64,000 bases of DNA, taken from contig OZ243961.1 in NCBI GenBank assembly GCA_965214605.1, positions 1,103,008-1,167,007 on the forward strand, in the 5' to 3' direction. Below, in pieces: positions 1,100-48,669 of this stretch. Source of the DNA: an uncultured Candidatus Binatia bacterium (GTDB taxonomy: Bacteria; Desulfobacterota; Binatia; Bin18). The position numbers and the translations under genes were made by a program. The notes beneath the pieces were generated by a model, which worked only from the letters and a program-made list of their open reading frames with translations, was not told where the DNA came from and ran no database searches. Every line of letters begins with the position of its first letter. The stretch's first letter is position 1.

Positions 1100-1795
1100 T
1101 CAGTCTGAACGCACGGTCCATTTCTTCAATTGCAACACCAGGCGTTGCCGCTCGTTGAGGCTCAGATTGCCGCTGCCCTCAAGCAGCGGGAACGTTTCGT
1201 CGCGCTGCACCATCCCAACGCCCGGAGCGTACAGGCTGATCACCGTCACCTTGCCACCTTTACTCCAGTGCATAACCTCGACACAGTCTTCGAAAGTCCC
1301 GGCTGGGAGGGTCACGGCTTGGTCTAGGGCGGTAATCTCATACCGGCCGTCGTTGTTCTCCCACACTGTCCCAGTCCGTAGGGGTCTTTTGAGGAAAAAT
1401 GTAGGTCCGGCATCTGTGCTCGGCTTGTCTTGTAGCTGGGCTCGAAATTTCCTGTGGATCATCGGCTGGGGTTGGAGGTCAACATTTATATCGTTATTGG
1501 TCAGGCGCTCAATACCGTCGGCCGTTGGCCGAAACTCCTCCTCAAAACTGGCGGTCGCCAACGAATCGGTCGTAATTTTGACCACAAACACGTCCTCTTC
1601 CTCACGAACAACTTCCCACTCTTCGGTACTGCTGCCCGCGCTGCCCTCATATAGCCAGCGATTCCCCACCGCCAGCGGGAAATAGGTCACCAGGTCCGGT
1701 TGTGCCCCAGCCACACCCTGTAGCCACAGCACGATAGCGACAACCCCGATGACCACAGAGCCGCGGTGCGCACGTTTCTTCGATCGATTTCCCAT
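1100..1795 (-). CDS. Hypothetical membrane-anchored or secreted protein
   Basis: The likely start is the internal Met (MGNRSKKRAHRG...) preceded by a GAGGAGG ribosome-binding site. A basic n-region is followed by the hydrophobic helix VVIGVVAIVLWLQGVAGA. No recognisable catalytic motif. Confidence 0.5.
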   Translation of the reverse strand: MGNRSKKRAHRGSVVIGVVAIVLWLQGVAGAQPDLVTYFPLAVGNRWLYEGSAGSSTEEWEVVREEEDVFVVKITTDSLATASFEEEFRPTADGIERLTNNDINVDLQPQPMIHRKFRAQLQDKPSTDAGPTFFLKRPLRTGTVWENNDGRYEITALDQAVTLPAGTFEDCVEVMHWSKGGKVTVISLYAPGVGMVQRDETFPLLEGSGNLSLNERQRLVLQLKKWTVRSD

Positions 1796-1857
1796 CGTCC
1801 TCCTCGCCCAGTGTTCATCTTGCACACAGACCGGGCGACCAGATAAAGGATTGTACC

Positions 1858-3996
1858 ATGACCAAACGAGAAAGACACACTGGCTGTGGTGAGCAGATGA
1901 CCCTGCTCACCCGGCGCGCCAGGGACGACCTCGGCACGCTAGTCGGCCAGTTGACAAGCGCCCAAGGAGACCGGCGCCGTGAGCTGCAAGCCCTTCTCCA
2001 ACGCCGGCTGACCGATCCAGGCCAGTTGGCAGACAGTTCGGTCCTGCCGGCTGACCACCCGCTGAGACGCCAGGCAAGGATTGTTCAGCAGCTGTTCAGC
2101 GCCGTCACTACTGCTCCGCTGTCGACGGGCGCCCTGGCCGGCTTAGACACCATCCCGCGCCAATCTCCGCTGGCACCCTGGAAATTACTCATCCGCGCAC
2201 TTGATGCGTTTTATCGCCGCGCAGATGAACTGGCTGAAGCCAATCTGGCCCGGATCCCGGCCGATTCCGGTCCGGGCCGTTTGGTCCCAGTCCTGCGAGC
2301 CCTGCTGAGTAAAACCGATACACTGGCTGAGTCGGAATTTCCCGACCCCAGCGCTCATGTAGCGGCCCTGTTGGAGCAGGTCAGCGCCGGCAATCACGCC
2401 CGACGCAGCCAGCTCAGCCAGGCACTGCTCTCTCATAACGAAAACCCTCCCCGCGCCACCCTACAACCCTTCCTCCCGTGGCTGGCCACTCTTCCGGCTA
2501 GCCATAGACACACGTTTATAAGGACGATGTTACACCACTGGCAACGGAATGGGGGGCTGTCACCCGGCCTCATAGACCTCCTCAGCCATCAAAGCATTGA
2601 CCCCGATATGCAGCGTCTTGCTGCCCTCAGCCTTGAACACCGCCACTGGGACGGGGCACTGCTGCTGTGGGACGCCTACCTCAGCGCGGCTCAGGCCGCA
2701 GGGCGGCTGTCTCCGAGCAGCCCGGAAACCGTTCATATTCTGCTGCATATGAGCGATCTGTTTCCGTCCGCTCCGCAGCAGATACTAGACGATTTAGGCC
2801 TGGCTTCTGAACAAGCACTCCGGCACCTGATCCGCACCGGCCAGTTTCCGGCCGTCTTTGATCGGGCCGCCCTGCTTGACCGGGCACGTCAAGCCGTCGG
2901 GGCTCTCTCGCCTCAACTCGGAGCACGGGTCTTTCGGGCCTCACTCGCCTACCATGAGCGGCGCGATGTCAAACGGGCCGAGGCTGAGGCCGAAGCCTGG
3001 CACAGCGCCTATCCGCACGATCTTGAGCCCCTGCTCTACCTGCTTGAAACCGCAGAAAAGCGTGGCGCAGTCCGAAAAGCGCTCGATTTTGTAGCCAAAG
3101 CAGAAGCCCTGAACCGCCTCCATCCCCAGCTACGGCACAGCCGGTTTCGGCTCCTGTTATCAAGAGCCGAGCGGCGGATTCAAGAGGCCAAATCCACGCT
3201 GGCCTTGGCCGATCTGGAACGCCTAGCCCAAGAACCACGAGCCAACGAGGGCGATACCAAAGCTTATCTGTTGTCTCTCAACTGGGCGCTCGCCCACAAA
3301 ATGGGCGATGCCGCCAGCGCCCAAAATCTGGCGCAGACCTTAGCCAGAACGGTCAACAATCAGGCTCTGCACGCCCTGATCCTCGCCACTGTGAGTGAGA
3401 TTACCAAAGTCTCTCGCCCTCAATGGTCAGCGAAAATTCCGTCCCTCCAGGCGATTGAGGGGCTGGCGCGGGCATGTGCCCTGTTTGGGGCGCTGAACCA
3501 TCGGGTAGCTGTACCGGACAGTTTCGTGAGCCAGGTTGAAAAAAACCTGGACAAGGCCACTGTGGCTCAGTTGCACGCCCTGTGTCACGGCGGCTTAGCC
3601 ATCGGGCAGCCAACCCTGACCTATATCGCTGCCGGTCACGGGCTGCGCTACCCAGAACCCCACCTGCACCGTTTTCTGTTGGCTCGCGGCAAAAGCCTAG
3701 GGGGAATACTCACCCATGCTCACCAAACCCGAGCCCGCAACTGTCTACGGGCGGCCCGTGAGTTGGCCAACCGGACACGGGATAAAGAGGCAACGGACCA
3801 GGCAGCGGCAGCACTCGACACACTGCCGACCTGGGGAGAGATAGAGGCCGTGCTGCTTGCTGCTCCCCACCACCCGCCTAGTCAGGCACAAATAGACCTG
3901 GCTCTTGAGGTCGAACGCCGTCATACTACGCCGCCACGTCTGGCCGGCCACGCGGCCGCTCACAGGCCCACTTTATCACAAGAAGCCTTGCGATAG
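1858..3996 (+). CDS. Large (712 aa) Ala/Leu/Arg-rich alpha-helical protein of unknown function, possibly TPR-like. First gene of the Hsp70 operon.
   Basis: Long uninterrupted ORF with an AAGGA ribosome-binding site. Its stop lies 17 nt before the J-domain gene. Repetitive helical composition (for example ...AEAEAEAWHSAYPHDLEPLLYLLETAEKRG...). No catalytic motif recognised. Confidence 0.55.
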   Translation: MTKRERHTGCGEQMTLLTRRARDDLGTLVGQLTSAQGDRRRELQALLQRRLTDPGQLADSSVLPADHPLRRQARIVQQLFSAVTTAPLSTGALAGLDTIPRQSPLAPWKLLIRALDAFYRRADELAEANLARIPADSGPGRLVPVLRALLSKTDTLAESEFPDPSAHVAALLEQVSAGNHARRSQLSQALLSHNENPPRATLQPFLPWLATLPASHRHTFIRTMLHHWQRNGGLSPGLIDLLSHQSIDPDMQRLAALSLEHRHWDGALLLWDAYLSAAQAAGRLSPSSPETVHILLHMSDLFPSAPQQILDDLGLASEQALRHLIRTGQFPAVFDRAALLDRARQAVGALSPQLGARVFRASLAYHERRDVKRAEAEAEAWHSAYPHDLEPLLYLLETAEKRGAVRKALDFVAKAEALNRLHPQLRHSRFRLLLSRAERRIQEAKSTLALADLERLAQEPRANEGDTKAYLLSLNWALAHKMGDAASAQNLAQTLARTVNNQALHALILATVSEITKVSRPQWSAKIPSLQAIEGLARACALFGALNHRVAVPDSFVSQVEKNLDKATVAQLHALCHGGLAIGQPTLTYIAAGHGLRYPEPHLHRFLLARGKSLGGILTHAHQTRARNCLRAARELANRTRDKEATDQAAAALDTLPTWGEIEAVLLAAPHHPPSQAQIDLALEVERRHTTPPRLAGHAAAHRPTLSQEALR

Positions 3997-4012
3997 GATG
4001 TGGTGCTTAACA

Positions 4013-4321
4013 ATGAAAAACACCGCCATGCTCAACCCTTTTGTCGTTCTCAATGTTAAAGACACCGCCGATGATGAGACCATTCGGGCGGCCTATGTGC
4101 GAGCCCTCAGGCATTCCCCACCAGACCGCGATCCGGAAGGATTTGGCCGGATTCGGGATGCGTATGAAGCGATTCGGGATGCCGAAAAACGTCTCGCCTA
4201 TCGCCTGTTCGGTCCGTTGCCGCTCGCCCGAGTTGAGGACCTATTTGATCTCATACCAGACGAACGGCGGCATCTCGGTCCAGAGCCGTGGTTAAATATC
4301 CTGCGGGGGGCACAACGGTGA
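4013..4321 (+). CDS. J-domain (DnaJ-like) co-chaperone with a non-canonical HPD region
   Basis: MKNTAMLNPFVVLNVKDTADDETIRAAYVRALRHSPPDRDPEGFGRIRDAYEAIRDAEKRLAY matches the J-domain helix II-loop-helix III pattern (AY+.L..k.HPD.n..A...F..i..AYe.L.d..kR). The HPD tripeptide reads H-S-P-P-D instead. The start is chosen at the first ATG after the upstream stop. Confidence 0.6.
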   Translation: MKNTAMLNPFVVLNVKDTADDETIRAAYVRALRHSPPDRDPEGFGRIRDAYEAIRDAEKRLAYRLFGPLPLARVEDLFDLIPDERRHLGPEPWLNILRGAQR

Positions 4322-5016
4322 GCAGGTTCACTGCGGACCAACGTCAACGTCTGCTAGAGACTGTCCAATCCTGGCTTGACGAACTCGATCAGGCAGAGCC
4401 GGCCCCGTCGGGTCTTTCCCCTGACATCATGGCTTCACCTGAGCCAGTTCCCGATCTGTTTTCTGTACTTGGGCAGCTGAGCGCGCTGACTCGTGAGACC
4501 CAGCTGCAAGGCCGGGCCACCAACCGTCTGCACACCGAACTTGGTCAGACCCTAGACGGGCTGGCCGAGCAAGTTGCCCAAAGCGAGACATCCACCTCTG
4601 GCCAAGCCTTAGTCCGCCAACTGAGCCAGGCACGGCGCGAGACGCGCACCGAACTCGTATCCGAGCTGCTTGAGGTCCGCGACCACCTGAGCCGTAATCT
4701 GATCGAGGCCGAGCGGCGGCTCACCAACTTGAGCGGCCTACGTGCCCGTCTTGGCCAACGTCCGGTGCTCGAAGCCCTCGTCAAAGGCACGCATCTGGCC
4801 CAGGAGCGGCTCGACGATCTGCTGCGGCGGCTGGATGTGTACGAGATTGCATGTCTTAACGCGGCATTCGATCCAAATCTGATGCGAGCAACCGCAGTCA
4901 GTCACACCACCACTGCAGTTCCAGGCACGGTAATCGCAGTTATCCGTCCCGGCTACACCTGTAACGGCCAGGTCATACGTTTTGCCGAAGTAAAGGTGGC
5001 CAAGAACAAGGAATGA
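4316..5016 (+). CDS. GrpE-like nucleotide-exchange factor
   Basis: The C-terminal FDPNLMRATAV...GTVIAVIRPGYTCNGQVIRFAEVKVAK matches the GrpE signature (FDP..HeA ... V..V...GY.l.g.viRpA.V.V), preceded by a long helical region. A GTG start overlaps the J-gene stop (GTGA), indicating translational coupling. Confidence 0.6.
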
Positions 5017-5048
5017 GAAACGGCGGAGAAAGACGCTGACCAACGACC

Positions 5049-6917
5049 ATGACACATGACACTATCCTTGGCATTGACCTGGGCACCACCACCTCCGAGG
5101 TTGCGGCCATCGTCGGTGGCGAAGTCCAGGTGTTGGCCGTTGACGGCGAGCGGACGATGCCTTCGGTCGTCGGCCTCACTCCAGACAACCGTATCCTGGT
5201 TGGCACCCCGGCTCGGAATCAATACCCCTTGTATCCAACCCGCACGGTGAAGTCGATCAAACGCCTGATGGGCTCCTCTCAACAGGTCGTGCTGGGCCGG
5301 CACAGCTATTCCCCACCAGAAATCTCAGCCCTGATCCTACGCAGACTGAAAACACGCGCTGAGACTGTCCTGGGCCGCTCACTCCCCCGAGCGGTTATCA
5401 CCGTGCCGGCCTATTTCTCCGACGCCCAACGCCAAGCCACCCGAGACGCCGGCCACATCGCCGGCCTGGAGGTCGTCCGTATTCTCAATGAACCGACCGC
5501 CGCAGCCCTGGCCTATGGCGCCGACCGGCGGGGAGAGCGCACAGTCCTGATTTATGACCTGGGCGGAGGGACGTTCGATGTGTCCCTGGTCCAGGTCCGG
5601 GACGAGATTACCGAGGTCATCGCCAGTCACGGCAACAACCACCTGGGCGGTGATGATTTCGACCAGCGGTTGTTGGACTGGGTCCATGACCAGTTTGTCC
5701 AGTCGGGCGGCCCAGACATTCGAACCGATCCCATAGCTATGAGCCGTCTATTATGTGCGGTTGAGGAGGCCAAAAAGCGCCTGAGCTTTGAGCCCTACAC
5801 CCGTATTCGGGAAGAGCATTTGGCCGAACAAAATGGGGTCCCAGTCCACCTTGATCTGGAAATATCTCGGGCGGACTATGAACTGTTGATCCAGCATCTG
5901 GTGGAAACCACCCTGGACAGCGTGCATCAAGCACTGAACGACGCAGGGAAGCGGCCGGACCAGATTGACGAGGTGCTGCTGGTCGGTGGCGCGAGTCGTA
6001 CGCCGCTGGTATCCCAGCTTCTTGAAGACAAGACCGGCTTAGTCCCCCACCAAGACCTCCAGCCCGAGCTGTGTGTCGCCTTTGGGGCCGGGGTGTTAGC
6101 CGCCCGCCAGGCGGGCCACAATATTGATCGGGTTTTGGTCGATATCTCGCCCTACTCTTTTGGTCCGTCGCACCTTGGTTTTCTGAACGGTAGACCGTAT
6201 GAACACTGTTACCACCCGATTATTCGGCGCAACACGCCCCTGCCAGTCAGCCGCACCGACTCCTACCATACGCTGGTTGACGGGCAAGCCGACTGGCAGG
6301 TATCCGTCTATCAGGGCGACGATCCAGACGCCTTAAACAACATTTTGGTTGGACGCTTCTGCGTGGAAGGACTCTCCCACGTGCCGGCCGGCAATGAGAT
6401 GCTGTGCCGTATGGAACTCGATCTGGATGGAATTCTCAAAGTCACGGCTATTGAGAAGCGCACCGGTTTGGCCCGGCACATTACGATTGAGGGAGCTACT
6501 ACTGCCATGTCAGCCGAGGATCTGGCCCAAGCCCGTCAGCGTACGCACGACTTATTGGCCCAGGACTGCACAGACACGGCCGAAGCGTTTGAGCAGGAGG
6601 AGATACATTCCGGCCGGACCGAACTGACGACATACGAGAACGCTGATGGCCACCAGAGCCGGATGAAACCAGCGTTGACGTTTGTGGAAACCACCCAGGA
6701 CCGCGAAAGCCAAGAGCTGCGCCAACACGTGTTTGCCGCCGGCCGCCTGTTAGAGCGAAGCCGTCGCCTGCTGAAAAAAATGACGCCTGAAGACCAACAA
6801 GAGGCGCTCGAGCTGCACCAACAAATCGAGGAGGCGCTGCGGATACAGAATTGGGACTATCTCCACACGGCAATTACCGAGCTGACCGATCTGCTGTTTT
6901 ATGTCGAAGAAGCCTAG
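5049..6917 (+). CDS. Hsp70-family chaperone (DnaK paralog) with a divergent substrate-binding domain
   Basis: The nucleotide-binding domain carries IDLGTTTS (phosphate 1), DLGGGTFDVSLV (phosphate 2), LLVGGASRTP (adenosine motif) and NEPTAAALAYG. The C-terminal half diverges from canonical DnaK. Confidence 0.85.
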   Translation: MTHDTILGIDLGTTTSEVAAIVGGEVQVLAVDGERTMPSVVGLTPDNRILVGTPARNQYPLYPTRTVKSIKRLMGSSQQVVLGRHSYSPPEISALILRRLKTRAETVLGRSLPRAVITVPAYFSDAQRQATRDAGHIAGLEVVRILNEPTAAALAYGADRRGERTVLIYDLGGGTFDVSLVQVRDEITEVIASHGNNHLGGDDFDQRLLDWVHDQFVQSGGPDIRTDPIAMSRLLCAVEEAKKRLSFEPYTRIREEHLAEQNGVPVHLDLEISRADYELLIQHLVETTLDSVHQALNDAGKRPDQIDEVLLVGGASRTPLVSQLLEDKTGLVPHQDLQPELCVAFGAGVLAARQAGHNIDRVLVDISPYSFGPSHLGFLNGRPYEHCYHPIIRRNTPLPVSRTDSYHTLVDGQADWQVSVYQGDDPDALNNILVGRFCVEGLSHVPAGNEMLCRMELDLDGILKVTAIEKRTGLARHITIEGATTAMSAEDLAQARQRTHDLLAQDCTDTAEAFEQEEIHSGRTELTTYENADGHQSRMKPALTFVETTQDRESQELRQHVFAAGRLLERSRRLLKKMTPEDQQEALELHQQIEEALRIQNWDYLHTAITELTDLLFYVEEA

Positions 6918-6935
6918 CCACGGAGACTCTCCAGC

Positions 6936-7304
6936 GTGTCTGACAGCACTCCTTCTTCCTCCGGCACTCCTCGTTCATCACTGCAAGAGGCACATTGTCC
7001 AACCTGCCGGGCAGCTTGGCGTGGGGCGGCTGTCTGCGCCCGATGTGGGACCGACCTAGACCCGCTCATGCGTCTGGCAACAAAAGCCTGGCAGCTACGT
7101 GAGCGGTCCCGTCAAGCCCTAGGTGCAGAGGACCGCGCTGCCGAAGCCCTGGCCTGGGCCGAGGTTGCCTGTCAGCTCCAGGCAACGACACGCGGCCTGC
7201 GCTTACTAGCCTTGGCCTTGCTTGCCAACGGTGCCGTGGCAGAGGCAGTGGCGATGATTGAGCAAATCTCCAAGGGGGAGGAGGCTCGCTGTACCCGCGT
7301 ATGA
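6936..7304 (+). CDS. Zinc-ribbon protein (CPTC...CARC) with a helical C-terminal region. Last gene of the Hsp70 operon.
   Basis: GTG start 19 nt after the Hsp70 stop, with a GGAG ribosome-binding site. Two CxxC pairs (CPTCRAAWRGAAVCARCG) are followed by an Ala-rich helical tail. Confidence 0.45.
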   Translation: MSDSTPSSSGTPRSSLQEAHCPTCRAAWRGAAVCARCGTDLDPLMRLATKAWQLRERSRQALGAEDRAAEALAWAEVACQLQATTRGLRLLALALLANGAVAEAVAMIEQISKGEEARCTRV

Positions 7305-11517: not shown

Positions 11518-12067
11518 CATGCGAATACGCCACTACTCCATAACGAAACGCCTCGTCTTCGTTGGGCCGTTTCTGTATGTGCTCGTGCTGGCGACGGCAT
11601 CCCTCACGGGGCGGGGAGAAATCTACCCCTTCTTTGCCTGGGACTTGTTCGCGGGGGTGCCGGCGGGGTGGGTCATCCAGACGCCCGCCGTGGTGGCGCA
11701 TCCGATGGACGACTCCCGAAATTTAGGGGGGGGGGGGGGACGCTGGGTCATTCCGTCCCCCGACCCCCGGCATTTGAAGGTGCTGCGCGAGGTCCTGCAC
11801 GCGTGTGAGCGCCGCGCGGCCCCCGCGTGCCGGTCCGCCGTGGCCCGCCTGCTGCTCCCCCTCGTCGTTGACGGCGTGGGGAGCGGCGCCGTGGAGTTCA
11901 GTCTCGTCTGGGCGGCCGTCGATCTGCGCGCCCTCCGGGAGGACATCTGGGCGCTCGCCGCCGGCCGCACGCAGCGCATGGACTATGCCCGGGTCGCTAC
12001 GGTGCTCTCGCGGTGGCGCGCGGCCGCGGCCGGCGGCCTGCACCGGGTTGATGGGGGCACCCCGTGA
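11518..12067 (+). CDS. Hypothetical protein, first gene of the high-GC cassette. Contains a poly-Gly stretch encoded by a 14-G run. The start is uncertain, because the ORF is open back to 10991.
   Basis: An abrupt GC jump begins near the ATG at 11518 (MRIRHYSITKRLVFVGPFLYVLVLATA...). An N-terminal transmembrane helix is present. The stop overlaps the GTG start of the downstream gene (GTGA). Confidence 0.35.
11726..11739. repeat. 14-bp poly-G homopolymer
   Basis: Read directly from the sequence: G x14, encoding GGGGG inside the 11518-12067 ORF. Confidence 0.9.
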
Positions 12068-13416
12068 ACGCTGCGCGGCTGCAGGGCCGGCTCCGCAAGA
12101 CCCTCCTCCACGTGGAGACGGGGGAGCGGCGGCGCGCGGCCGACTTCTCGCGGGCCGCGCGCCACATCGCCGTGCTGGTCCGGTTCTATTACATCTTCGT
12201 CGCGTACCTCCTCTTCGGCCGGTTCAAGGTTGCGAATTTGCTCCACGGCATTCCCCCGCCCGCGCCGTTGTGGCCCCTGGACCTGATGGCGACAGTCGCG
12301 GGCTCCGCGTGGCTCGCGTGGGGCGAGCTCCTCACGGCGGCGGGCGTGGGGGTGGCGCTGCTGGCGGCGCTGTGTCCGGGCGTGCTGCTCTTCCGGCTTG
12401 GGGTCTTCGTCTATCTCTTCATCGGCATCGCGCTGGCCAACTCCTATGGCGCCATCAGCCATGGGCGCCATCTCTTCCTCTATGTCTCCTTCGGGTTGTT
12501 GTGGCTGCCGGCGGCCATCGGCCGCCCGGAGCGCATGGCGCGCCGGGAGGCGATGGCGTGCAACGCGGCCTTCTGGCTGACACAGGCACTGCTGCTGCTG
12601 CCCTACAGCCTCAGCGGCTTCTGGACACTCTGGCGCAGCAACCTCCAGTTGGTGTCCCTCGACTCCTTCGTCCGGCTGGTCCTCGCCGGCCTGCTCGAAC
12701 AGGCCGGCGGGCCCCTCCCGCCGCTGGTCCCGTGGCTCGCCCAGTACCCCTCGGTCGGCCAGGGCTTGTATCTGGCGTTTTGCTATGTGGAAGGGCTGCT
12801 GCTCGTCAGTCTGTTCCGCCCCCACTTGCAGCGAGGGTTCGGCCTGGTCGTCATCGGGTTCCATCTCGGGACGCGGTGGCTGCTCGGCTTTGCCGCCGCT
12901 CCCTACCTCGTGCTCTGGTTCCTCTTCCTGGTGGCTTCGCCGTTCGCCGCGGCCCGGTTCTCCCCGGTCGCCACGGCGCGCTCGCTGCCGCTCCTCGGCC
13001 TCCCCTTCCGCGCGTGGGCGCGCTGGAGGCGCCCGGAGAAAGGGGCGGAGAAGGCGTGGCTGGTGTATGATGGCGAGTGCCCGTTCTGTTCGCGTTACTC
13101 ACGCATGGTCGATGTGAGAGATGCCATCGGCGAACTCATACTCGTGAACGCCCGCGATGGGGGGCCGATCGTGGACGAGATCAAGGCCCTGCCTTGGGAT
13201 CTCAACAGGGGCATGGTACTGAAACTGAACGGACGATACCGGTTTGGCGACGAGGCCCTGCACACCTTGGCGCTCCTGTCGCGGAAGAATGGCGCATTCG
13301 GCATCCTGAACCGTCTCGTGCTCGGTTCGCGCGCGGTCGCATGGTTCGCATACCCGCTGTTGAAGCTCTGCAGGAGGCTGGCGCTGATGGCGAAAAGGGT
13401 TCCGGTCCTGAAGTAG
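12064..13416 (+). CDS. Polytopic membrane protein (HTTM-like domain) fused to a C-terminal DCC-family thiol-disulfide oxidoreductase domain (DUF393)
   Basis: Multiple predicted transmembrane helices in the N-terminal 300 aa. The C-terminal WLVYDGECPFCSRYSRMVD carries the DGxCxxC signature of the DCC/DUF393 family. In Pfam architectures this domain commonly co-occurs with the HTTM (vitamin-K-carboxylase-like) domain. Confidence 0.6.
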   Translation: MNAARLQGRLRKTLLHVETGERRRAADFSRAARHIAVLVRFYYIFVAYLLFGRFKVANLLHGIPPPAPLWPLDLMATVAGSAWLAWGELLTAAGVGVALLAALCPGVLLFRLGVFVYLFIGIALANSYGAISHGRHLFLYVSFGLLWLPAAIGRPERMARREAMACNAAFWLTQALLLLPYSLSGFWTLWRSNLQLVSLDSFVRLVLAGLLEQAGGPLPPLVPWLAQYPSVGQGLYLAFCYVEGLLLVSLFRPHLQRGFGLVVIGFHLGTRWLLGFAAAPYLVLWFLFLVASPFAAARFSPVATARSLPLLGLPFRAWARWRRPEKGAEKAWLVYDGECPFCSRYSRMVDVRDAIGELILVNARDGGPIVDEIKALPWDLNRGMVLKLNGRYRFGDEALHTLALLSRKNGAFGILNRLVLGSRAVAWFAYPLLKLCRRLALMAKRVPVLK

Positions 13417-14111
13417 GAAACTCTTCGTAACGTTCACCTTCGCGACGGGGATCACCGACGCTACTGCTTGATGACGAAACCTTCATCAAGCGGGGAGATG
13501 CAGCGAATGCTGGCGGAGGGCATTGCGTCCGAGGACCGGCGGATTGTCGATCTGACGGTGCTGGATCTAAACGTTCAGTCGCCGCAGCACGGTCCCGACC
13601 TTCGGTGGGTGCAGGCTCACCCGTGGAGCTCAACCCGCCCCATCGCCGAGGTCCGTGCCCTACAGCGAGTATTGATTTCATGTCACGCCCAGGTCCGATT
13701 TCGCCCGGAGGACGTTTGGGAATAACCTCGGGGCGGAATGAATGGTTGGTGAAAGCCATGGAGAATTATATTGAGATTGCGCCTTAGGTTCACGGTCGGT
13801 CCCCGTTGATGGCCGTGGGCCGTCACAAGCGGGAAGAGGCGCAGGAATGGTTGGCGGCGTGTTTCCGGTGTCCGGCGTATTCGCTAGGCTGGCGTCGGTC
13901 GGGGCGGGTCTGCAACCGTTCCGGATGATCGATGGGAGGGGGCAAAAGGACCTGACGCCGCCCTCAACCGGCGTCAAGCCGGTGAAAGAATCGTCATCGA
14001 GAACCGCCGTGCGCTCGACGACAACGCATGGCGGCGAGCGTTACCAGCCTCTTGCGGGACCTCAATTCGATTGTGTATGATGACACCGACACGGTCACCC
14101 GTACGGCCCGA

Positions 14112-14280: not shown

Positions 14281-16341
14281 ATGAGCTTCACAGGATCCGA
14301 TTACCGCATCGGAGTTGACGTAGGCGGCACCTTTACAGACCTGCTACTTTTTGACCAACAAACCGGCCACCAGGTCAGGGCCAAGACCCCCTCGACTCCA
14401 GACGATCCGTCGGTCGGCGTGCTGGCAGGGATTGATAAGATCTGTCGGGCGGCCCAGATCCCTGCGGCCCAGATCACCCACATTATGCATGGCACGACCG
14501 TAGCAACCAACGCAGTCCTGGAAGGCAAGGGTGCCCGGGTCGGCCTGATTACAACCGAGGGGTTCAAGCAGATCCTGCACCTGGCCCGCTCGTGGACGCC
14601 GGGTCCGCTGGCAGGCTGGATTACTATGGAGAAGCCCGATCCGCCTGCCGCAATTGAGTACACCCGAGAGGCTAAGGAGCGGATCGACACCCACGGCAAT
14701 ATTGTCACCCCGCTCGACGAGGATGCGCTGCGAGACGCGCTAGACGACTTGGTCGGTCAAGCTATTGAAGCCCTCACCATCTCCCTGATTAACTCGTATA
14801 CCAATCAGATTCACGAAAAGCGGATTAAAGCCATTGCCCAGGAACTCTATCCCGATCTGCCGGTCACTGCTTCCTCTGAGGTTCTACCCGAGTTCCGTGA
14901 GTATGAGCGCACCCTGACCGCGGTGATGAACTCCTATGTCCGCCCTACCGTTTCGGTCTATTTACGGAATTTCGCCGATCAGTTGATTGATCACGGGCTA
15001 CGCGCAGAGGTGAATATCCTGCGCTCCGACGCGGGTCTGATGACCTTACGCATGGCCCAAGAACGGCCGGTGTACGCCGTCATGTCGGGTCCGGCCGGTG
15101 GGGTTGCAGGAGCGCTGTTTACCGCCACCACAGCCGGCTTTGGTAATATTCTCACCCTGGATATGGGCGGGACCTCAACCGACGTCGCGCTGTGTCAGAA
15201 CGGCACGCAGACTATCGCCCGCGAGACAACACTGGGCTATTTTCCAATCAAAGTTCCCTCGGTTGATGTACGCAGCATTGGGGCTGGGGGTGGCTCGATT
15301 GCCCATGTGCCGGAGATTACGAATGCTCTGCGGGTTGGTCCGCAGAGCGCAGGGGCAGAGCCGGGGCCGGCGTGTTACGGTCGGGGCGGAACCCAACCAA
15401 CGGTGACAGACGCTAATCTTGTGCTCGGCCATCTGCCCCCTCGACTGCTAGGCGGTGAGATGCGTCTGGACGAAGAGGCCGCGCACGCTGCGGTTGAGAG
15501 CGTAGGCCGCAAACTTGGTTTAGACGTCTATCGGGCCGCGCAGGGCATTGTGGATATTGTCAATGAGAACATACATGGCGCGTTACGCCTGGTCTCAGTG
15601 CAACGCGGCTATGACCCGCGCAATTTTGCACTCGTGGCTTTTGGTGGTGCAGGTCCCCTCCACGCCAACGCGGTGGCCAGCCTAATTGGCTCATTCCCTC
15701 TCATCATCCCCCCCGCACCCGGGATACTATGTGCCACCGGCGATGTGTGTTCCGACTACCGTGAAGAGTTCGCTCGGACCGTACTGCGGACCCTGGACCA
15801 GCTGCCGGCGGCTGAGGTTAAACAGTTGCTCCAGGAACTCGGCAGCGAGGCCGCCGGCTGGCTTGAGCGCGAGGGCATTCCCCGCTCCCAGCAGGACATA
15901 TTCTATAACGCCGACATGCGCTATTTCCGCCAAGGCTACGAGCTGCCGATCGTCATTACGCTCGAAGACTTACAGGCACAGGGGATCGGCATCCTAGCCG
16001 ACCGCTTCCACGCTTTGCACGAACAGTTGTACCGCTTTCGGCTCGACGCGGAGTGCGAAATCGTCAACCTGCGGGCCGTGGCTCTGGGTAAAGGGGCGCG
16101 CTTCAGCCTGAACGCAGCGGACCTCGACGGCCCGGACGCGGCCCATGCCCAAACCGACGAGCACCGGACTTATTTTGACGGCAATTTTCTGCCCACACCA
16201 ATCTATGATCGGTTCAAGCTCAGACCCGGTAACCGGCTCACCGGCCCAGCCATCGTTACTGAAATGGACTCGACCACCGTCGTCCTGCCGCACTGTACGG
16301 CTGAGGTCGATCGCTACGCCAATATTTTGGTTCGACCGTAG
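14281..16341 (+). CDS. Hydantoinase/oxoprolinase A-family protein (HyuA / acetone-carboxylase-beta-like)
   Basis: N-terminal YRIGVDVGGTFTDLLL (ASKHA-fold phosphate-1), DMGGTSTDVAL, and a length of about 686 aa, typical of the Hydantoinase_A family. Confidence 0.85.
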   Translation: MSFTGSDYRIGVDVGGTFTDLLLFDQQTGHQVRAKTPSTPDDPSVGVLAGIDKICRAAQIPAAQITHIMHGTTVATNAVLEGKGARVGLITTEGFKQILHLARSWTPGPLAGWITMEKPDPPAAIEYTREAKERIDTHGNIVTPLDEDALRDALDDLVGQAIEALTISLINSYTNQIHEKRIKAIAQELYPDLPVTASSEVLPEFREYERTLTAVMNSYVRPTVSVYLRNFADQLIDHGLRAEVNILRSDAGLMTLRMAQERPVYAVMSGPAGGVAGALFTATTAGFGNILTLDMGGTSTDVALCQNGTQTIARETTLGYFPIKVPSVDVRSIGAGGGSIAHVPEITNALRVGPQSAGAEPGPACYGRGGTQPTVTDANLVLGHLPPRLLGGEMRLDEEAAHAAVESVGRKLGLDVYRAAQGIVDIVNENIHGALRLVSVQRGYDPRNFALVAFGGAGPLHANAVASLIGSFPLIIPPAPGILCATGDVCSDYREEFARTVLRTLDQLPAAEVKQLLQELGSEAAGWLEREGIPRSQQDIFYNADMRYFRQGYELPIVITLEDLQAQGIGILADRFHALHEQLYRFRLDAECEIVNLRAVALGKGARFSLNAADLDGPDAAHAQTDEHRTYFDGNFLPTPIYDRFKLRPGNRLTGPAIVTEMDSTTVVLPHCTAEVDRYANILVRP

Positions 16342-16704
16342 ACGTGGCGGGAGGAAAGCAAGCTAGAGCATGGATGAACAGTCCCTCGACCTTGCTCAAC
16401 GAGCAGTCATCGCCTTGGCAACGGTGCCAAAGCCTGAAAAGCCTGAGATGTCTCCCGGTGACTGAGTAGCCCTGAGAGTCGGCATGTCCCACGGTTTGCT
16501 CATTGTCTGGGGCTTCTGTAAGGTGCATACTAGAGAGTGGAGAATGACTAGACGTTCGCGCAACGCAAGAAAGAAAAGTAGGCACTCTATCCACCCGGTA
16601 TGACCTGCACGTGGTCGAGTTGACAGACAGCGAGTTCCAGAACCTTGACGACAACCTAGTGCAGCCCCTGCTCCTCTTCGGCATCAATTGCACCTGACAC
16701 ATCT

Positions 16705-17400
16705 ATGACAGTAGCCTCCCCCCTTCTCCCCGACCCAATAGCCAAGCTGGTCGCTGGCGCCTTAGCCTTCCGCCAGGACGAATACGGAGCTGGCAGCAGC
16801 CTCATGCCCCGTTTGGCCGCTGGCCAGCAGCCCCACGTCCTGATGATTGGATGCAGCGACTCGCGCGTTGATCCGGCCCTACTCTGCGGTACAAGGCCTG
16901 GCGATCTATTCGTTGTTCGCAATGTCGCTAACCTAGTGCCGGCCTATGACCAGCGCGACAGCCTGGGCCAGGGGGTGCGCGCAGCTCTCGAATATGGCGT
17001 GAAAGCGCTGAAGGTTTCACACATCGTCGTGCTCGGCCACTCCCACTGCGGCGGCATCCGGGTCCTGATTGATACAGCCCGAGGCAGAGCGCCTGCATTT
17101 GAATGTATCGGCCCATGGCTCAGCCTGGCCGGCGATGTCTGCGACCGAGTGTTGAAGCAGCTGGCCGCGGATTCCTCAAAACATGTGACCACAGAGCAGC
17201 TGCCAACCTACGCTCCGCTGGTCGAGCGCCAAGCCGTCCTGCACTCTCTTCACAACCTCCGCACTTATCCCTGGATCAGCACCAGAATCGCCAGCGAGAC
17301 ATTGAGCCTACACGGCTGGTGGTTTGATCTCGATTCCGGGCGGCTATGGACGACCCAAGCGCCGGCTTCGGACAAGCTCACCCTGCTTGAGGCCGAGTGA
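16705..17400 (+). CDS. Beta-class carbonic anhydrase
   Basis: Zinc-ligand motifs CSDSR and HSHCGG(I), typical of beta-carbonic anhydrases. Confidence 0.85.
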   Translation: MTVASPLLPDPIAKLVAGALAFRQDEYGAGSSLMPRLAAGQQPHVLMIGCSDSRVDPALLCGTRPGDLFVVRNVANLVPAYDQRDSLGQGVRAALEYGVKALKVSHIVVLGHSHCGGIRVLIDTARGRAPAFECIGPWLSLAGDVCDRVLKQLAADSSKHVTTEQLPTYAPLVERQAVLHSLHNLRTYPWISTRIASETLSLHGWWFDLDSGRLWTTQAPASDKLTLLEAE

Positions 17401-17480
17401 ATGAGTCCCTGGCCGTCGGCTTTTCTCTAAGCGCCCTATCTGGTAGCTGAAGGGGAGAGTTGGCAGAGAGGAGCACAACT

Positions 17481-19370
17481 ATGCGCGACGTGAACATCGC
17501 TACTATTCCAGACCTTGAGGTTGACCCGGTAACGCTCGACATCATTGAGAGTGCGCTCAAGAACTATCGCTACGAAATGGACGCGGTGCTGTACCGTACC
17601 GCCATGTCGCCCGTTATTCGGGAACAGCACGACGAGTTTCCGATGATTTGCGACCCCAACGGTCGGATGGTCGTCGGCCAGTTCGGCTCGTATATCCGGG
17701 AGATGATGGACGGCTTCGACCGTCCAATCTACCCCGGCGATGTTATCCTGCTCAACGACCCCTATCTGTGCGGCGGAGCGATCTCGCATATCAACGATTT
17801 TTTGGTTTTAGTCCCGATCTTTGACGGCGATGAGCTAATCGGCTGGACGTCGATGTTTGGCCACCAAATGGATGTCGGTGGCCCTCTGCCCGGCTCTTTT
17901 CCGACCAACGCCACCTCCATTTTTGGCGAGGGGCTGCGTATCCCACCGGTCAAGCTGTTTGAGAAGGGCGCCCTGAACGAGGATATCTTGCATTTGATTC
18001 TCAACAATGTGCGCATCCCGATCATGAACCGCTCCGATCTGATGGGCATTGTGGCCGGCTGCAAAACCGCCGAGCAGAGAGTCACAGAGCTGTGTGAGCG
18101 GTTTGGCCGCGACACGTATTTGGCTGCTTGTCAGGCCCTGCTCGACCGCACCCGGCGAGCCATGCAGACGCTCATCAAGCGCAATATTTCGACCGAACCG
18201 CAGTCTTTTGAGGACTATGTTGACGACGACGGGCTAGGCAACGGACCGTTCAAAATGAAACTCACTATTTGGCGTGAAGAGGAGAAAGTCGTCTTCGACT
18301 GGACCGGCACAGACCCGCAGGCGGCCGGGCCGATTAACTTCTACCTGAACGAAGGTATGTTCAAAATGTTCATCGGCGTCTACCTGATCATGGTCTATGA
18401 CCCGCAGATTCTGTTCAACGACGGCTTTTATGATCTGATTGAGGCGCGCTTGCCCGACGGCTCCCTGCTCCACCCCAAGTTTCCAGCGGCCCTCGGCTGC
18501 CGCACCCACGCCCTAGCTCGGCTGTTTGACGTGATGAGCGGTTGCCTCGGCCAGAAGAGCCCCGAGCTGACCACCGCGGCTGGCTACGGCACCAGCCCCC
18601 ACCTGCTGTATAGCGGAACCGACAAAAAGGGGGAGTTTTTCTTTATTATGGAGATCAGCTACGGCGGCATCCCGGGCCGACCGGTCGGCGACGGCATAGA
18701 CGGCCATTCGTGGTGGCCGCTGTTCACCAATATTCCGACTGAGTATTTGGAGAGCTACTGCCCACTGCGGATTGATCGTTACGCCTCGGTGATGGATTCC
18801 GGCGGAGCCGGCCTGCACCGCGGAGGCAATGGCATAGATAAATGGTATACTTTTCTAGAACCCGGTGAGATCGCCATTCATGACGATCGTTGGTTGACCC
18901 CGCCGTGGGGGATCTTGGGCGGCAAGCCGGGCATGCGGTCCAAAAAAATCCTGATTCGTACAGATGGCAGCCAAGAAGTCTTGCCCTCGAAGTGCGATCA
19001 AATCAAAGTTGAGTCAGGTGACCAACTGATCTACCAGACAGCTGGCGCCGGAGGTTGGGGAGACCCGCTGAAGCGAGCGGCAGAGAAAGTGCGCAGCGAT
19101 GTGGTGCGGGATCTGGTGTCTGTTGACAAGGCGCGGCGCGAGTACGGTGTTGTGCTTGATCCAGACACCGCTCAGGTCGATCAAGACGCCACCGGTCAGC
19201 TGCGTGAACAGCTGGCCCAAAAGCGGGACGAGCAGCCCACCTTTGACTTCGGTCCCCCATTGCCCGAGTTGCTTGCTCGTTGCAAACAAGAAACCGGTTT
19301 GGAGCCGCCGACTCCGCCGAGCCTGCCGGACAACTGGGCCGTCAATGGAGCCAAGAAACGGGCGGCCTGA
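17481..19370 (+). CDS. Hydantoinase B / oxoprolinase-family protein (HyuB / acetone-carboxylase-alpha-like)
   Basis: Typical Hydantoinase_B N-terminus (DPVTLDIIESALKNYRYEMDAVLYRTAMSPVIRE). The ATG at 17481 follows a GAGAGGAG ribosome-binding site, so the listed TTG start at 17460 is probably not used. Confidence 0.85.
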   Translation: MRDVNIATIPDLEVDPVTLDIIESALKNYRYEMDAVLYRTAMSPVIREQHDEFPMICDPNGRMVVGQFGSYIREMMDGFDRPIYPGDVILLNDPYLCGGAISHINDFLVLVPIFDGDELIGWTSMFGHQMDVGGPLPGSFPTNATSIFGEGLRIPPVKLFEKGALNEDILHLILNNVRIPIMNRSDLMGIVAGCKTAEQRVTELCERFGRDTYLAACQALLDRTRRAMQTLIKRNISTEPQSFEDYVDDDGLGNGPFKMKLTIWREEEKVVFDWTGTDPQAAGPINFYLNEGMFKMFIGVYLIMVYDPQILFNDGFYDLIEARLPDGSLLHPKFPAALGCRTHALARLFDVMSGCLGQKSPELTTAAGYGTSPHLLYSGTDKKGEFFFIMEISYGGIPGRPVGDGIDGHSWWPLFTNIPTEYLESYCPLRIDRYASVMDSGGAGLHRGGNGIDKWYTFLEPGEIAIHDDRWLTPPWGILGGKPGMRSKKILIRTDGSQEVLPSKCDQIKVESGDQLIYQTAGAGGWGDPLKRAAEKVRSDVVRDLVSVDKARREYGVVLDPDTAQVDQDATGQLREQLAQKRDEQPTFDFGPPLPELLARCKQETGLEPPTPPSLPDNWAVNGAKKRAA

Positions 19371-19421: not shown

Positions 19422-20177
19422 ATGGGGAAACTCGACAATAAGATCGCCCTCGTCACCGGCTCCAGCAGCGGCATCGGAAAGACTGTTGCTCTAGCCTTTG
19501 CCGACCAAGGCGCCGATCTCGTCCTCAACTATCCGAATGATTCCCAGCTGCAAAACGTCACTCGCGTCAAGGAAGACATTGCCGCCTTCGGACGCCGGGT
19601 GATCGCCGTCCGAGCCGATGTCTCCCAGGAAGACCAGGTGCAGAGCTTAATTGACACGACCGTTCAAACCTACGGACGGATTGATATTCTGGTCAATAAT
19701 GCCGGGATCGGCACGGCCAGCCTGGTCGAGAACATGTCGATCACGATGTGGGATGAAATGCTAGCTGTCAACTTACGCAGCGTCTTCCTATGCACCCGTC
19801 TAGTTTTACCGCTCATGTATCAACAAAACTCCGGCAAGATCATTAACACCGCCTCACAGCTTGCCTATAAAGGCGCGCCGGGACTCAGCCATTACTGTGC
19901 GGCCAAAGCCGCCATCATTGGCTTTACTCGCTCCCTGTCACACGAGATCGGCACCCGGAATATTAACGCTAACTGTGTGGCGCCAGGTGCAACCCATACC
20001 CCTCTTGTGGACGGTCTCAACAAAGAAGCGGTTGAGGCGATTCGGGCGGCTATTCCCAAGGGCCGACTGGCGACGGTGGATGAAATTGCTCCAACCTATG
20101 TCTTTTTGGCTTCAGACGAATCGCGGCACTTTGTTGGCCAGTGCCTCAGCCCCAACGGCGGAGACGTCATGCTCTAA
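19422..20177 (+). CDS. SDR-family reductase (3-oxoacyl-ACP reductase-like)
   Basis: TGSSSGIGK, NNAG, and the S...YxxxK (YCAAKAA) catalytic tetrad. Confidence 0.85.
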   Translation: MGKLDNKIALVTGSSSGIGKTVALAFADQGADLVLNYPNDSQLQNVTRVKEDIAAFGRRVIAVRADVSQEDQVQSLIDTTVQTYGRIDILVNNAGIGTASLVENMSITMWDEMLAVNLRSVFLCTRLVLPLMYQQNSGKIINTASQLAYKGAPGLSHYCAAKAAIIGFTRSLSHEIGTRNINANCVAPGATHTPLVDGLNKEAVEAIRAAIPKGRLATVDEIAPTYVFLASDESRHFVGQCLSPNGGDVML

Positions 20178-20265
20178 GACATTCGGCCGACCCTTCTCTT
20201 CCCTTTTCTCCGCCCTCTGCCTCCTGCCTTGTCACACCTGGTCCACCCAGATACACTCGGCCGCC

Positions 20266-21501
20266 ATGCCTCAACCGCCCTCCGCCTCCACGGTGTCATC
20301 CCAGCTGTCCCAGGATCCGACTCCCCAACCAACCCTGTTCACCTCCAATTACGTGCTGCTATGTGTCAGCGCTTTTCTGTTTTCGGGTAGCATGTTCATA
20401 CTGTTTGCGGTTCTACCGCTGTTCGTTGTTCAGGAACTGCATGGAGCAGAATCCCAGGTCGGCCTCATTATGGGTGCGTTTGCCATCTCGGCGGTGTTGA
20501 CTCGACCTTTCTCTGGACTGCTGGTTTCGATCTGGAGCCGAAAAAGCGGGCTAAGCATCGGAACCTTCATCTATTTCCTGGCTCCTGCCCTGTACACCTT
20601 GGCCGGATCAGTGTCGCTCATGCTAGGCCTACGTTTTTTTCACGGCATCGGCATTGCCATCTATACCACCGCGTCGAGCGTATTTGTCGCCGACCTGTCT
20701 CCTCCCTCCCGGCGTGGAGAAGCCATGGGGTATTACGGCATGGCGCTGAACCTGTCGATGACAATCGGCCCAGCCCTAGGCGCCTATCTGGTCGGCAAGA
20801 TCGGCTTTATCAATCTGTTTTGGCTGTCCGCAGCGCTGGCGCTAGCTAGCTTCTTGCTCACCCTGCTCCTGCACGAACCCCACCGTTCTCCACCACCGCC
20901 TCAGACCCCGGCCAAGCGTCCGCCCTTATTCCACCGGTCCGCCCTGTTTCCGGGGCTGATTGCGGTCTGCATGACCATGACCTTTGGCACGGTCGTGTCC
21001 TTTCTGCCGCTGTTTGTGCAGGCTCACCAACTCGGCAACCCAGGTCTGTTCTTTACCGTATACTCCATTGCTGTAGTTGTCTCGCGTCCCTTTGCTGGCC
21101 GGCTGTCAGACCGCTTTGGCCGGCCGGTGGTGATCATCCCCGGTATGCTGCTGCTGACTATGGCGATGACTATCTTGGCGTTCTCAAGTAGCCAGTTCGG
21201 AATGCTCAGCGCGGCTGTCTTTCAAGGCTTCGGCTTTGGTGGTGTCCAGCCATCACTGATGGCCCAGGTGGTCGATCGCTCAACCGACCACGATCGTGGT
21301 CCGGCGCTGGCCACGCTGATGGGGGCATTCGATGTAGGTGTCGGTCTGAGCTCGGTCGGTCTAGGCCTGGTCCTGGGAGCCACAAGCTTTCCCGTTACCT
21401 TTCTATGCGCAGCCGGGATTGGTCTGTTTGGCGCCGCGGCGTCGACCTGGGACGCGTTCTTGCGTCAACCGGCTCAGTCCGTCCCTGGCAAGACCTTGTG
21501 A
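20266..21501 (+). CDS. MFS transporter
   Basis: Twelve predicted transmembrane helices in a 6+6 arrangement, with a G-rich loop (DRFGRP). The start is set at the ATG (MPQPPSAS...) downstream of the SDR stop, because the upstream part of the listed ORF overlaps the SDR gene in another frame. Confidence 0.8.
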   Translation: MPQPPSASTVSSQLSQDPTPQPTLFTSNYVLLCVSAFLFSGSMFILFAVLPLFVVQELHGAESQVGLIMGAFAISAVLTRPFSGLLVSIWSRKSGLSIGTFIYFLAPALYTLAGSVSLMLGLRFFHGIGIAIYTTASSVFVADLSPPSRRGEAMGYYGMALNLSMTIGPALGAYLVGKIGFINLFWLSAALALASFLLTLLLHEPHRSPPPPQTPAKRPPLFHRSALFPGLIAVCMTMTFGTVVSFLPLFVQAHQLGNPGLFFTVYSIAVVVSRPFAGRLSDRFGRPVVIIPGMLLLTMAMTILAFSSSQFGMLSAAVFQGFGFGGVQPSLMAQVVDRSTDHDRGPALATLMGAFDVGVGLSSVGLGLVLGATSFPVTFLCAAGIGLFGAAASTWDAFLRQPAQSVPGKTL

Positions 21502-21797
21502 ACAAGCCACCATGCCCATTCGATAAGTGCAGCGACTTTTGATCCGCCCCCTGTCAGGAAGCTGCGACTGTTGGCATGCCCGAAGGGCAAGTGGAGGGCC
21601 AAGCCCAAGTCAGCGTCGAATTGGTCGCAGACCGATTTGTCCTACAAGCAAACCTCGACTAGAGCCTGAAAGAGCTGGAATCGTGTCTCACGCTCCGCTT
21701 GGGGAAGGGGCCGGTCGTGGCGGTTCGTCTTATCACGGCTCTGGCAAAGCTGTTGCAGAGCGGTAGGGGCAGGGCCCCTTCCCGGCCCGGTTGTAGA

Positions 21798-46077: not shown

Positions 46078-46108
46078 TCCTTGCCCCTTTCCATCATACA
46101 CGGCCAAC

Positions 46109-48321: not shown

Positions 48322-48511
48322 CCAAGATTTGGCTGAGGCTTGGTGGTTTACTCTTTATTGCCGCTTACCAGCACGGCTACAGTTGCTATGGCCGCAGAAA
48401 GCACGGCCGCCCCGGCAACAATTTGCATAAAAATAGCAAGGGGGTCCATAGCTGTTCTCCTTGAGAAGGGTTCTGAAATTCGAAATGTTGTATCTACACA
48501 AAAGTGAGGCA

Positions 48512-48585
48512 TAGCGACGGGCAGAATCGAACTGCCGACCTAGGGATTATGAGACCCTCGCTCTAGCCTACTGAGCTACGTCGCC
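48512..48585 (-). tRNA. tRNA with anticodon CAT (elongator tRNA-Met or tRNA-Ile2 lysidine substrate). CCA is not encoded.
   Basis: Cloverleaf readable on the minus strand. Acceptor GGCGACG/CGTCGCT with a G1-U72 wobble. D-arm GCTC-AGTAGGCTA-GAGC. Anticodon loop CTCATAA with U33 and A37. T-arm GGCAG-TTCGATT-CTGCC. Discriminator A. A U-U mismatch closes the anticodon stem. Confidence 0.7.
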
Positions 48586-48669
48586 ACAACGTCCTTAGCA
48601 GGATAACAGCTAGGCATACTAGCCGACAATGGCCCAGCTCGGCAAGCCCGCTGGCCTGCTAGGTGATCA

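Follow-up and report, generated by a model that had tools for sequence, protein, structure and literature searches.

A recurrent five-gene bacterial operon that may encode a dedicated Hsp70 cycle with TPR-like partner proteins

Introduction

Textbook accounts of bacterial Hsp70 systems deal with DnaK, HscA and HscC (PMC8215388), and reviews list only these three, YegD and a set of undefined 'derivatives' (PMC8215388, PMC13580251). The known system closest to the one considered here consists of HscC and the J-proteins DjlC and DjlB, encoded by the ybeW, ybeV, ybeS locus of Escherichia coli. The features listed for HscC include 4-8 extra residues inserted in loop L1,2 and a shortened lid helix B, along with a preference for positive charge (PMC8215388). 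Here we analyse a 64,000-nucleotide (nt) stretch of DNA from an uncultured Candidatus Binatia bacterium (hereafter the window), which carries an operon for a large helical protein (A), a small J-domain protein (J), a GrpE-like protein, an Hsp70 and a zinc-ribbon protein (Z). On balance we favour the view that this module specifies a dedicated, non-housekeeping Hsp70 cycle in which the J-domain co-chaperone is split into a tetratricopeptide repeat (TPR) scaffold, A, and the small protein J. No description of the module was found in the literature searched, in agreement with an initial annotation of this DNA that had not recognised the arrangement as a characterised system.

Two lines of previous work bear directly on the J-domain component. 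Replacement of the His in the HPD triad normally abolishes ATPase stimulation: HPN and QPD variants are inactive, and the only change of the triad reported to be tolerated is the HPE of DjlB and DjlC (PMC13254874). HPE is present in about 1% of J-domains (PMC10410713). The combination of TPR and J-domains was seen only in eukaryotes in a large survey of J-proteins (PMC10410713); in one such protein, DNAJC7, action of the J-domain requires contact between the TPR domain and Hsp70 (PMC13254874). As for the exchange factor, a precedent for a private GrpE exists in Myxococcus xanthus, where the non-essential DnaK paralogue of the GrpS-SglK pair (MXAN_6672, MXAN_6671; MxDnaK2) is co-transcribed with its own GrpE (PMC11019930).

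Results

Five co-directional genes, all on the plus strand, form an operon between positions 1858 and 7304 of the window. Lengths of the products are given in amino acids (aa).

1858-3996, plus strand: A, 712 aa, ATG start
4013-4321, plus strand: J, 102 aa, ATG start
4318-5016, plus strand: GrpE-like gene, 232 aa, GTG start at 4318
5049-6917, plus strand: Hsp70 gene, 622 aa, ATG start
6936-7304, plus strand: Z, 122 aa, GTG start, with a GGAG about 10 nt upstream

Successive genes are separated by 16, -4, 32 and 18 nt. The initial annotation had placed the 32-nt gap and a GTGA overlap correctly; the gaps it gave as 17 and 19 nt are in fact 16 and 18 nt, and the start it implied for J was about one base away from the true start at 4013. 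In the GTGA overlap, the GTG of the GrpE-like gene at 4318 runs into the stop codon of J (4319-4321), an ATGA-type arrangement by which translation of the GrpE-like gene would be coupled to that of J. The longest possible open reading frame (ORF) for the GrpE-like gene opens upstream of this GTG, at 4288.

To place the operon in a wider context, one genome per GTDB species was scanned with a profile of A, which yielded 48 loci, and all stop-to-stop ORFs of these loci were compared with our own hidden Markov models for the five proteins. The loci come from Binatia, Rokubacteria/Methylomirabilia, Nitrospinota, metagenome-assembled genomes (MAGs) labelled 'Deltaproteobacteria', Planctomycetota, Myxococcota, Hydrogenedentota, Chloroflexi, Gemmatimonadales and Acidobacteriota (Solibacteraceae, Bryobacteraceae, Thermoanaerobaculia). 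Forty-three were informative, that is, had at least 3.3 kb downstream of A, and 38 of these show the order A-J-GrpE-Hsp70-Z. The same gene order spans at least eight bacterial phyla, a recurrence far beyond chance, which strongly supports what the initial annotation had made its proposal depend on, that the genes for the 712-aa and zinc-ribbon proteins stay linked to Hsp70 in other genomes. The five non-standard loci comprise one with A and J fused (L023), one with a permuted order (L042), one interrupted by a run of N (L026) and two frameshifted long-read assemblies (L033 and L050). In the permuted locus, from a planctomycete (L042:5228-11624), the order is Hsp70-Z-A-J-GrpE, and both the Hsp70-Z and the A-J-GrpE adjacencies are kept.

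Other measures of conservation point the same way. The nearest relatives of A are in Binatia, at 70-73% identity. There are 191 close homologues of A; in each of five homologues looked up by exact sequence, A is followed by J, GrpE, Hsp70 and a small ORF, within unrelated flanks. Among 1.84 billion cluster representatives, a profile search found 1716 members of the A family at E<=1e-3, 464 of them at E<=1e-30. When the window was compared with two Binatia relatives, dN/dS values lay between 0.15 and 0.44 in all five genes, including the zinc-ribbon part of Z; all five thus appear to be under purifying selection.

Gene context also bears on the limits of the module. All-against-all clustering of flanking ORFs brought out no sixth gene conserved across clades. 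ORFs for an SDR, an ABC transporter, a hydantoinase and a 241-aa protein recur only through synteny within the Binatia clade, and other recurrent neighbours, CoA-transferase III and enoyl-CoA hydratase among them, are widespread paralogues of metabolic enzymes. On one Rokubacteria contig the 5.9-kb five-gene unit is present twice (L024:7534-13450 and L044:7533-13421), in copies that are 98% identical, lie 25 kb apart and end where the module ends; this may be a true duplication or an assembly artefact. The distribution of the module is patchy. Altogether, the gene context provides evidence that these five genes make up an autonomous unit.

Protein A was described initially as an Ala/Leu-rich helical protein, and this holds: it contains 15.9% Leu and 15.6% Ala, is predicted to be all-helical and matches no Pfam family. 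An AlphaFold2 (AF2) model built from 49 sequences, with a predicted local distance difference test score (pLDDT) of 81, shows an all-helical, TPR-like superhelix, and we predict a role for A as a scaffold or targeting subunit. Sequence identity is about 50% across phyla. Members of the family are usually 800-1000 aa long, and the clade represented in the window has a shortened form: compared with the common 816-aa form, some 85 aa that make up an N-terminal module are missing, as is the C-terminal tail. In most orthologues this tail is disordered and has an Arg/Lys run followed by LPRGLLDEMLSFL, and in most clades the N-terminus is polybasic (M-x-K-[KRH]-[KR]...). Longer, distant A proteins, surveyed in sets of 8 and then 40 sequences, have no additional Pfam domains; those of about 900-1000 aa carry a C-terminal extension with a CxCPxCRR motif and an acidic then basic stretch, also without a Pfam match. 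Homology of A to the C-terminal region of DjlC or to YbeU was considered and rejected (hhalign probability below 1%).

The strongest evidence on how A and J are related comes from the fused locus. On the Binatia chromosome OZ241744.1 a single ORF (L023:7932-10454) encodes A followed by J, in what we take to be a natural TPR-J fusion. The corresponding 841-aa cluster, P0004, comprises 12 distinct sequences at least 90% identical to one another, drawn from NCBI, ENA and Logan assemblies, and the fusion is limited to one Binatia lineage. Considered together with the invariant adjacency of A and J, which holds even in the permuted locus, the fusion suggests that A and J act as one co-chaperone, and it favours an adaptor role for A over that of a mere client. 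A second apparent fusion, in an Acidobacteriota long-read MAG (L050), was discounted: the assembly is visibly frameshifted, and at L050:10282-12690 the GrpE gene leaves its frame, crosses an Arg-rich segment and carries on into Hsp70. This looks like an assembly frameshift and makes the A-J fusion of L050 unreliable.

J is recognised by the Pfam DnaJ model (34.7 bits; cut-off 27.8). At 102 aa it lacks the G/F region, zinc finger and C-terminal domains of DnaJ. Its J-domain aligns without gaps to that of E. coli DjlC (39% identity), with PPDRDPEGF lying opposite HPETDPQGF, so that the first Pro of the PPD triad aligns with the His of HPE. The domain scores 31.0 bits against DjlC and 28.0 against DnaJ; in DjlC and J alike the helix II-III loop is short and the triad differs from HPD (HPE and PPD, respectively), and the domain is of the DjlC type. 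The two proteins differ in overall build, since DjlB and DjlC are about 480 aa long and described as tail-anchored membrane proteins, whereas J is without the long C-terminal region of DjlC. PPD replaces HPD in every J segment with a readable loop (44 of 48 loci); the triad of one further locus, L050, reads PPE. Judged by the HPD rule, the domain would be classed as 'J-like'. The 35 residues that follow it form a conserved tail with the pattern FGPxPL...P.ER..GP..WL.

The initial annotation had let its proposal hang on whether the 4288-5016 product is recognised as a GrpE. It is: the Pfam GrpE model matches at 82 bits (gathering score 25.8; E 5e-23) over model positions 23-165 of 165. The protein nevertheless falls below every NCBIfam GrpE equivalog cut-off, a combination that points to a divergent paralogue. 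A motif in its N-terminal part, W.D...E.PP.G...PDL, is conserved.

The Hsp70 displays a similar balance of likeness and divergence. It scores 439 bits with the Pfam HSP70 model and stays below the NCBI equivalog cut-offs for DnaK (TIGR02350 or PRK00290; 471.9 versus 822.55, and 485.6 versus 648) and for HscA (388.7 versus 708.55). Its best solved relative is the DnaK of Geobacillus (401 bits). The window protein and 15 orthologues from all clades were aligned with DnaK, HscA and HscC of E. coli. Residues identical in all 16 are D8, K70, R71, P143, R151, R167, N170, E171, T173, D194, T199, D201, D326, D393 and D481. In DnaK, R167 pairs with the Asp of HPD (PDB 5NRO). To judge from this alignment, the ATPase and the interdomain allosteric core are intact, and the protein would be expected to cycle between ATP and ADP states. 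An intact ATPase domain next to a divergent substrate-binding domain was what the initial annotation had described, and both halves of that description stand, with the divergence extending to the lid.

The divergent parts are those in which the protein resembles HscC. Eight residues are inserted in loop L1,2 of its substrate-binding domain, at the position of the corresponding insertion of E. coli HscC, PYS[FL]G replaces PLSLG (PYSFG in the window), and the start of the lid is shortened as in HscC. Deletion of the segment corresponding to DnaK residues 76-101 in the nucleotide-binding domain is likewise common to the two, as is the pairing of a specialised paralogue with a private J-protein. 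The substrate-binding domain is marginally nearer HscC than DnaK (51.8 versus 42.2 bits), whereas the nucleotide-binding domain is nearer DnaK (296 versus 219 bits). A further difference concerns the exposed loop of subdomain IIB, which is tied to GrpE dependence (PMC8215388). This loop is deleted in HscA and in HscC, which needs no exchange factor; in the module Hsp70 it has its full length and the GrpE gene is invariant. Within the family, the residue aligned with DnaK V436, which forms the floor of the substrate pocket, differs between clades: it is Trp in Binatia/Rokubacteria and Val in Acidobacteriota/Planctomycetota, which suggests a shift in peptide specificity. No second Hsp70 is encoded in the other 57 kb of the window.

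The C-terminal part of the Hsp70 consists of a short helix, a variable acidic linker and, over about 75 aa, a conserved helical bundle. All loci that could be followed as far as the stop codon encode a protein ending in the motif [DE][LF][LV]F[FY][VLI]E[EG]x (...DLLFYVEEA in the window). A disordered tail comparable to EEVD was considered here and downgraded: in the alignment the invariant motif falls opposite the final lid helix of DnaK, so it is probably structured rather than a free tail.

For Z, Pfam gives only sub-threshold zinc-ribbon matches; the cysteine pairs C21-P-T-C24 and C34-x-R-C37 are present (CPTC...CARCG), and a CPxC...CxRCG ribbon followed by a helical domain is found in every locus. 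All 213 homologues are standalone proteins of about 115-130 aa. In the AF2 model (pLDDT 81) the ribbon is followed by four helices, and Z consists of a zinc ribbon and two TPR repeats; P58IPK is among its best structural matches. The gene stays next to that of Hsp70 wherever the order was read, the permuted locus included. A 78-aa form of Z listed in NCBI/ENA (P0243), from a 4.3-Mb contig that also carries A and Hsp70, starts at an internal Met and omits the CPxC...CxRCG ribbon, a segment (6936-7070 in the window) conserved in every orthologous locus. The TPR nature of A and Z, the PPD triad, the likeness to HscC and DjlC and the A-J fusion are all additions to the initial annotation.

One further feature precedes the operon.

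1820-1848, plus strand: promoter-like element TTGCAC-N17-ATAAAG, ending 9 nt before the ATG of A

The pattern TTGC..-N16-18-.TA[AG]A[AG], placed 9-11 nt before the ATG of A, is present in 13 of 36 orthologous upstream regions, against a mean of 0.05 in shuffled sequences. Carriers belong to Binatia and to one clade of MAGs labelled 'Deltaproteobacteria', and the form they share is TTGCAC-N17-(A/C)TAAA(G/A). The exact TTGCAC-N17-ATAAAG sequence occurs once in the window. A generic scan for sigma-70 promoters and terminators found nothing above background and did not flag the 1820-1848 element; Rfam and tRNA scans gave no match near the operon. We infer that the element may function as a promoter, and its position just before the ATG suggests that A is the first gene of a near-leaderless operon. 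Divergent from A and 32 nt away, a 241-aa ORF with no Pfam family (1100-1825, minus strand) overlaps the element; beyond the window, this ORF is conserved in Binatia relatives alone (L001, L002, L009, L011 and L012).

The remainder of the window is of ordinary chromosomal character. Segments at 14281-19370, 23241-24338, 44236-47656, 48511-48586 and 61694-63838 hold hydantoinase/oxoprolinase A and B, squalene/phytoene synthase, FtsH, TilS, tRNA-Met and a circularly permuted ATP-grasp/Alpha-E protein. Two segments, 12001-14000 and 20001-22000, have a strong negative AT skew (-0.21), the first also with a G+C fraction of 0.66; their ORFs encode a 450-aa protein with a DCC1-like thiol-disulfide oxidoreductase domain and an MFS transporter.

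Discussion

The initial annotation had proposed that this locus encodes a complete private Hsp70 cycle, separate from the housekeeping one. Profile searches bear out the first part, with J-domain, GrpE and Hsp70 all recognised and the catalytic and allosteric residues of the Hsp70 kept. The second part is upheld indirectly only, through DnaK scores below cut-off, a J of 102 aa, a patchy distribution and a unit found twice on one contig.

How might such a cycle work? A and J would together constitute a J-domain co-chaperone divided between two genes, A providing a peptide-binding or targeting surface and the conserved tail of J anchoring it there. The J-domain would then trigger Hsp70 at the site bound by A. 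Z, encoded right after Hsp70, could be an obligatory partner that docks on the C-terminal helical bundle of Hsp70 or caps the A superhelix. The peptide held in the Hsp70 cleft could be the polybasic N-terminus of A, the basic-hydrophobic C-terminal tail present in most of its orthologues, or a client lodged in the groove of A. Given the HscC-like substrate-binding domain and the liking of HscC for positive charge, the basic termini of A and groove-held clients are the best candidates. The machine would remodel a specific A-centred complex rather than serve general protein folding.

Several points weigh against this interpretation. The A protein of the window has neither the hydrophobic C-terminal tail nor the N-terminal module, and neither can be essential. 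With HPE as the sole variant of the triad reported to be tolerated, a PPD J-domain may bind Hsp70 without stimulating it. Gene fusions may also join an enzyme to its substrate, which leaves the A-J fusion compatible with A being a client. No linked enzyme, effector or client gene was seen in the loci examined, and a canonical dnaK is not among the genes of the 64-kb window, the sole part of the genome covered.

A bolder version, which we advance tentatively, would make the module a bacterial counterpart of the TPR-organised Hsp70 machinery of eukaryotes. In it, A with its detachable J would resemble DNAJC7 or P58IPK, Z would dock on the C-terminal end of Hsp70, and the PPD triad would stimulate a co-evolved Hsp70, breaking the rule on the HPD His. 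The 841-aa fusion does have the layout of DNAJC7/TPR2 and DNAJC3/P58IPK, a TPR array followed by a C-terminal J-domain. There is, however, no detectable sequence homology with these proteins, TPR and J are usually separate genes in the module, and the triad is PPD and not HPD. A comparison with the TPR-clamp co-chaperones (Hop, CHIP, DNAJC7) is similarly divided: the module has proteins of TPR fold, and the C-terminus of its Hsp70 is invariant, but this end lies in the alignment opposite the final lid helix of DnaK and has no disordered linker before it, whereas the ligand of a TPR clamp is an extended, disordered acidic motif. Eukaryotic Hsp70 ends in a disordered EEVD tail, and the module Hsp70 in what is probably the end of a lid helix (LLF[FY]VE[EG]x).

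If the fusion leaves room for A as a client, the roles could be reversed, with Hsp70, J and GrpE assembling, disassembling or switching an A-based scaffold through its basic termini, and with Z as a second subunit of that scaffold. Hsc70 and auxilin acting on clathrin, and HscA and HscB acting on IscU, would be the analogues. A has a conserved polybasic N-terminus and, in most orthologues, a C-terminal Arg/Lys run followed by LPRGLLDEMLSFL that conforms to the textbook pattern of Hsp70 binding, and these would suit a substrate-binding domain of the HscC type, which prefers positive charge; in addition, about 50% identity across phyla is unusually high for a scaffold. We consider this unlikely all the same, as the window clade has lost the hydrophobic tail while its operon is still under purifying selection, the A-J fusion looks like a J-domain protein with its targeting domain, and A shows no sign of self-assembly. 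The HscA-HscB-IscU system does share with the module a logic of dedicated Hsp70, small J-protein and operon linkage to the partner, and the C-terminal part of HscB, which binds one specific partner, can be likened to that of J. It differs in that HscA has no exchange factor, HscB has HPD, and the partner, a small Fe-S scaffold, bears an LPPVK motif and is not a TPR superhelix. No isc genes are present in any locus examined.

The substituted triad could also be taken at face value. In that case a non-stimulating 'J-like' domain would belong to a regulatory or holdase device, in which the zinc site of Z acts as a redox or metal sensor gating Hsp70 or A, in the manner of Hsp33 or of zinc-binding anti-sigma factors. 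That the His is replaced in every locus read, a change normally inactivating (PMC13254874), and that the four-cysteine motif of Z is invariant both fit such a device. It strikes us as improbable, because the module has its own GrpE and its Hsp70 a fully conserved ATPase and allosteric network, which together speak for a rapid and complete cycle, the Asp of the J motif and its partner R167 in Hsp70 are both kept, and no link ties Z to a sigma factor or to DNA.

A role in anti-phage defence or conflict, as an NTPase-thresholded system like those built on GAP1-N2 GTPases, appears quite improbable. The idea draws on the neighbourhoods described by Kaur et al. 2020, in which Hsp70 and GrpE are linked to partners bearing DnaJ or TPR domains, as they are here; it could also appeal to the mobile elements or toxin-like genes adjoining the module in L003 and L001, to its patchy distribution and to the unit present twice on one contig. 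The GAP1-N2 systems, though, centre on a GTPase and FNIII-repeat proteins and are found mostly in Actinobacteria and Firmicutes, and neither the TRAFAC GTPase nor FNIII repeats were detected in the window or in related loci. A GTPase, effector or EAD domain is linked in none of the 43 informative loci, PADLOC gave no real match, the A profile hit nothing in 2.9 million viral contigs or in plasmids, and most flanks consist of ordinary metabolic genes.

That the module is simply the housekeeping dnaK-grpE-dnaJ set of a divergent phylum can be dismissed as very improbable: all three canonical functions are accounted for, DnaK is the best match of the nucleotide-binding domain and no other Hsp70 lies in the window, but Hsp70 and GrpE score below all DnaK and GrpE equivalog cut-offs, J lacks the domains and the HPD triad that mark a class A DnaJ, the substrate-binding domain and lid are HscC-like, and the module is also found in Acidobacteriota, Planctomycetota and Myxococcota. 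Cultured members of these three phyla carry an ordinary DnaK. No derived Hsp70 paralogue is reported from a genome that lacks a bona fide DnaK (PMC13580251).

For the dedicated cycle that we favour, HscC with DjlC remains the closest known system. The resemblance extends to gene content: the E. coli K-12 locus (L057, 677415-683393) encodes DjlB, the Sel1/TPR-like protein YbeT, the DUF1266 protein YbeU, DjlC and HscC, so that YbeT there and A here provide a TPR-class repeat protein in each case. The linkage between such proteins and Hsp70 paralogues may predate the module. Z has no counterpart in the HscC system. GrpS-SglK, compared here by description, shares only the private GrpE; it is bicistronic, without a neighbouring J-protein, and no TPR or zinc-ribbon partner has been reported for it.

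If our interpretation is correct, the module would be a fourth bacterial Hsp70 system. With 1716 cluster representatives, the A family is widespread in phyla of soil, sediment and groundwater, most of them uncultured, and A and Z represent two protein families absent from Pfam. The module has kept a private GrpE, whereas HscA and HscC, the other specialised bacterial Hsp70s, have dispensed with exchange factors, and its TPR partners are of note in view of the TPR-plus-J architecture having been reported only for eukaryotes (PMC10410713). A J-Hsp70 pair with a PPD triad, apparently under purifying selection across phyla, provides a natural test of the HPD rule. Should a complex of A, J, Hsp70 and Z prove amenable to reconstitution, it would offer a tractable system for studying how the specificities of J targeting subunits and Hsp70 paralogues co-evolve. 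Finally, the module may help to make sense of the E. coli HscC locus, so far unexplained, where a TPR-class protein is also encoded.

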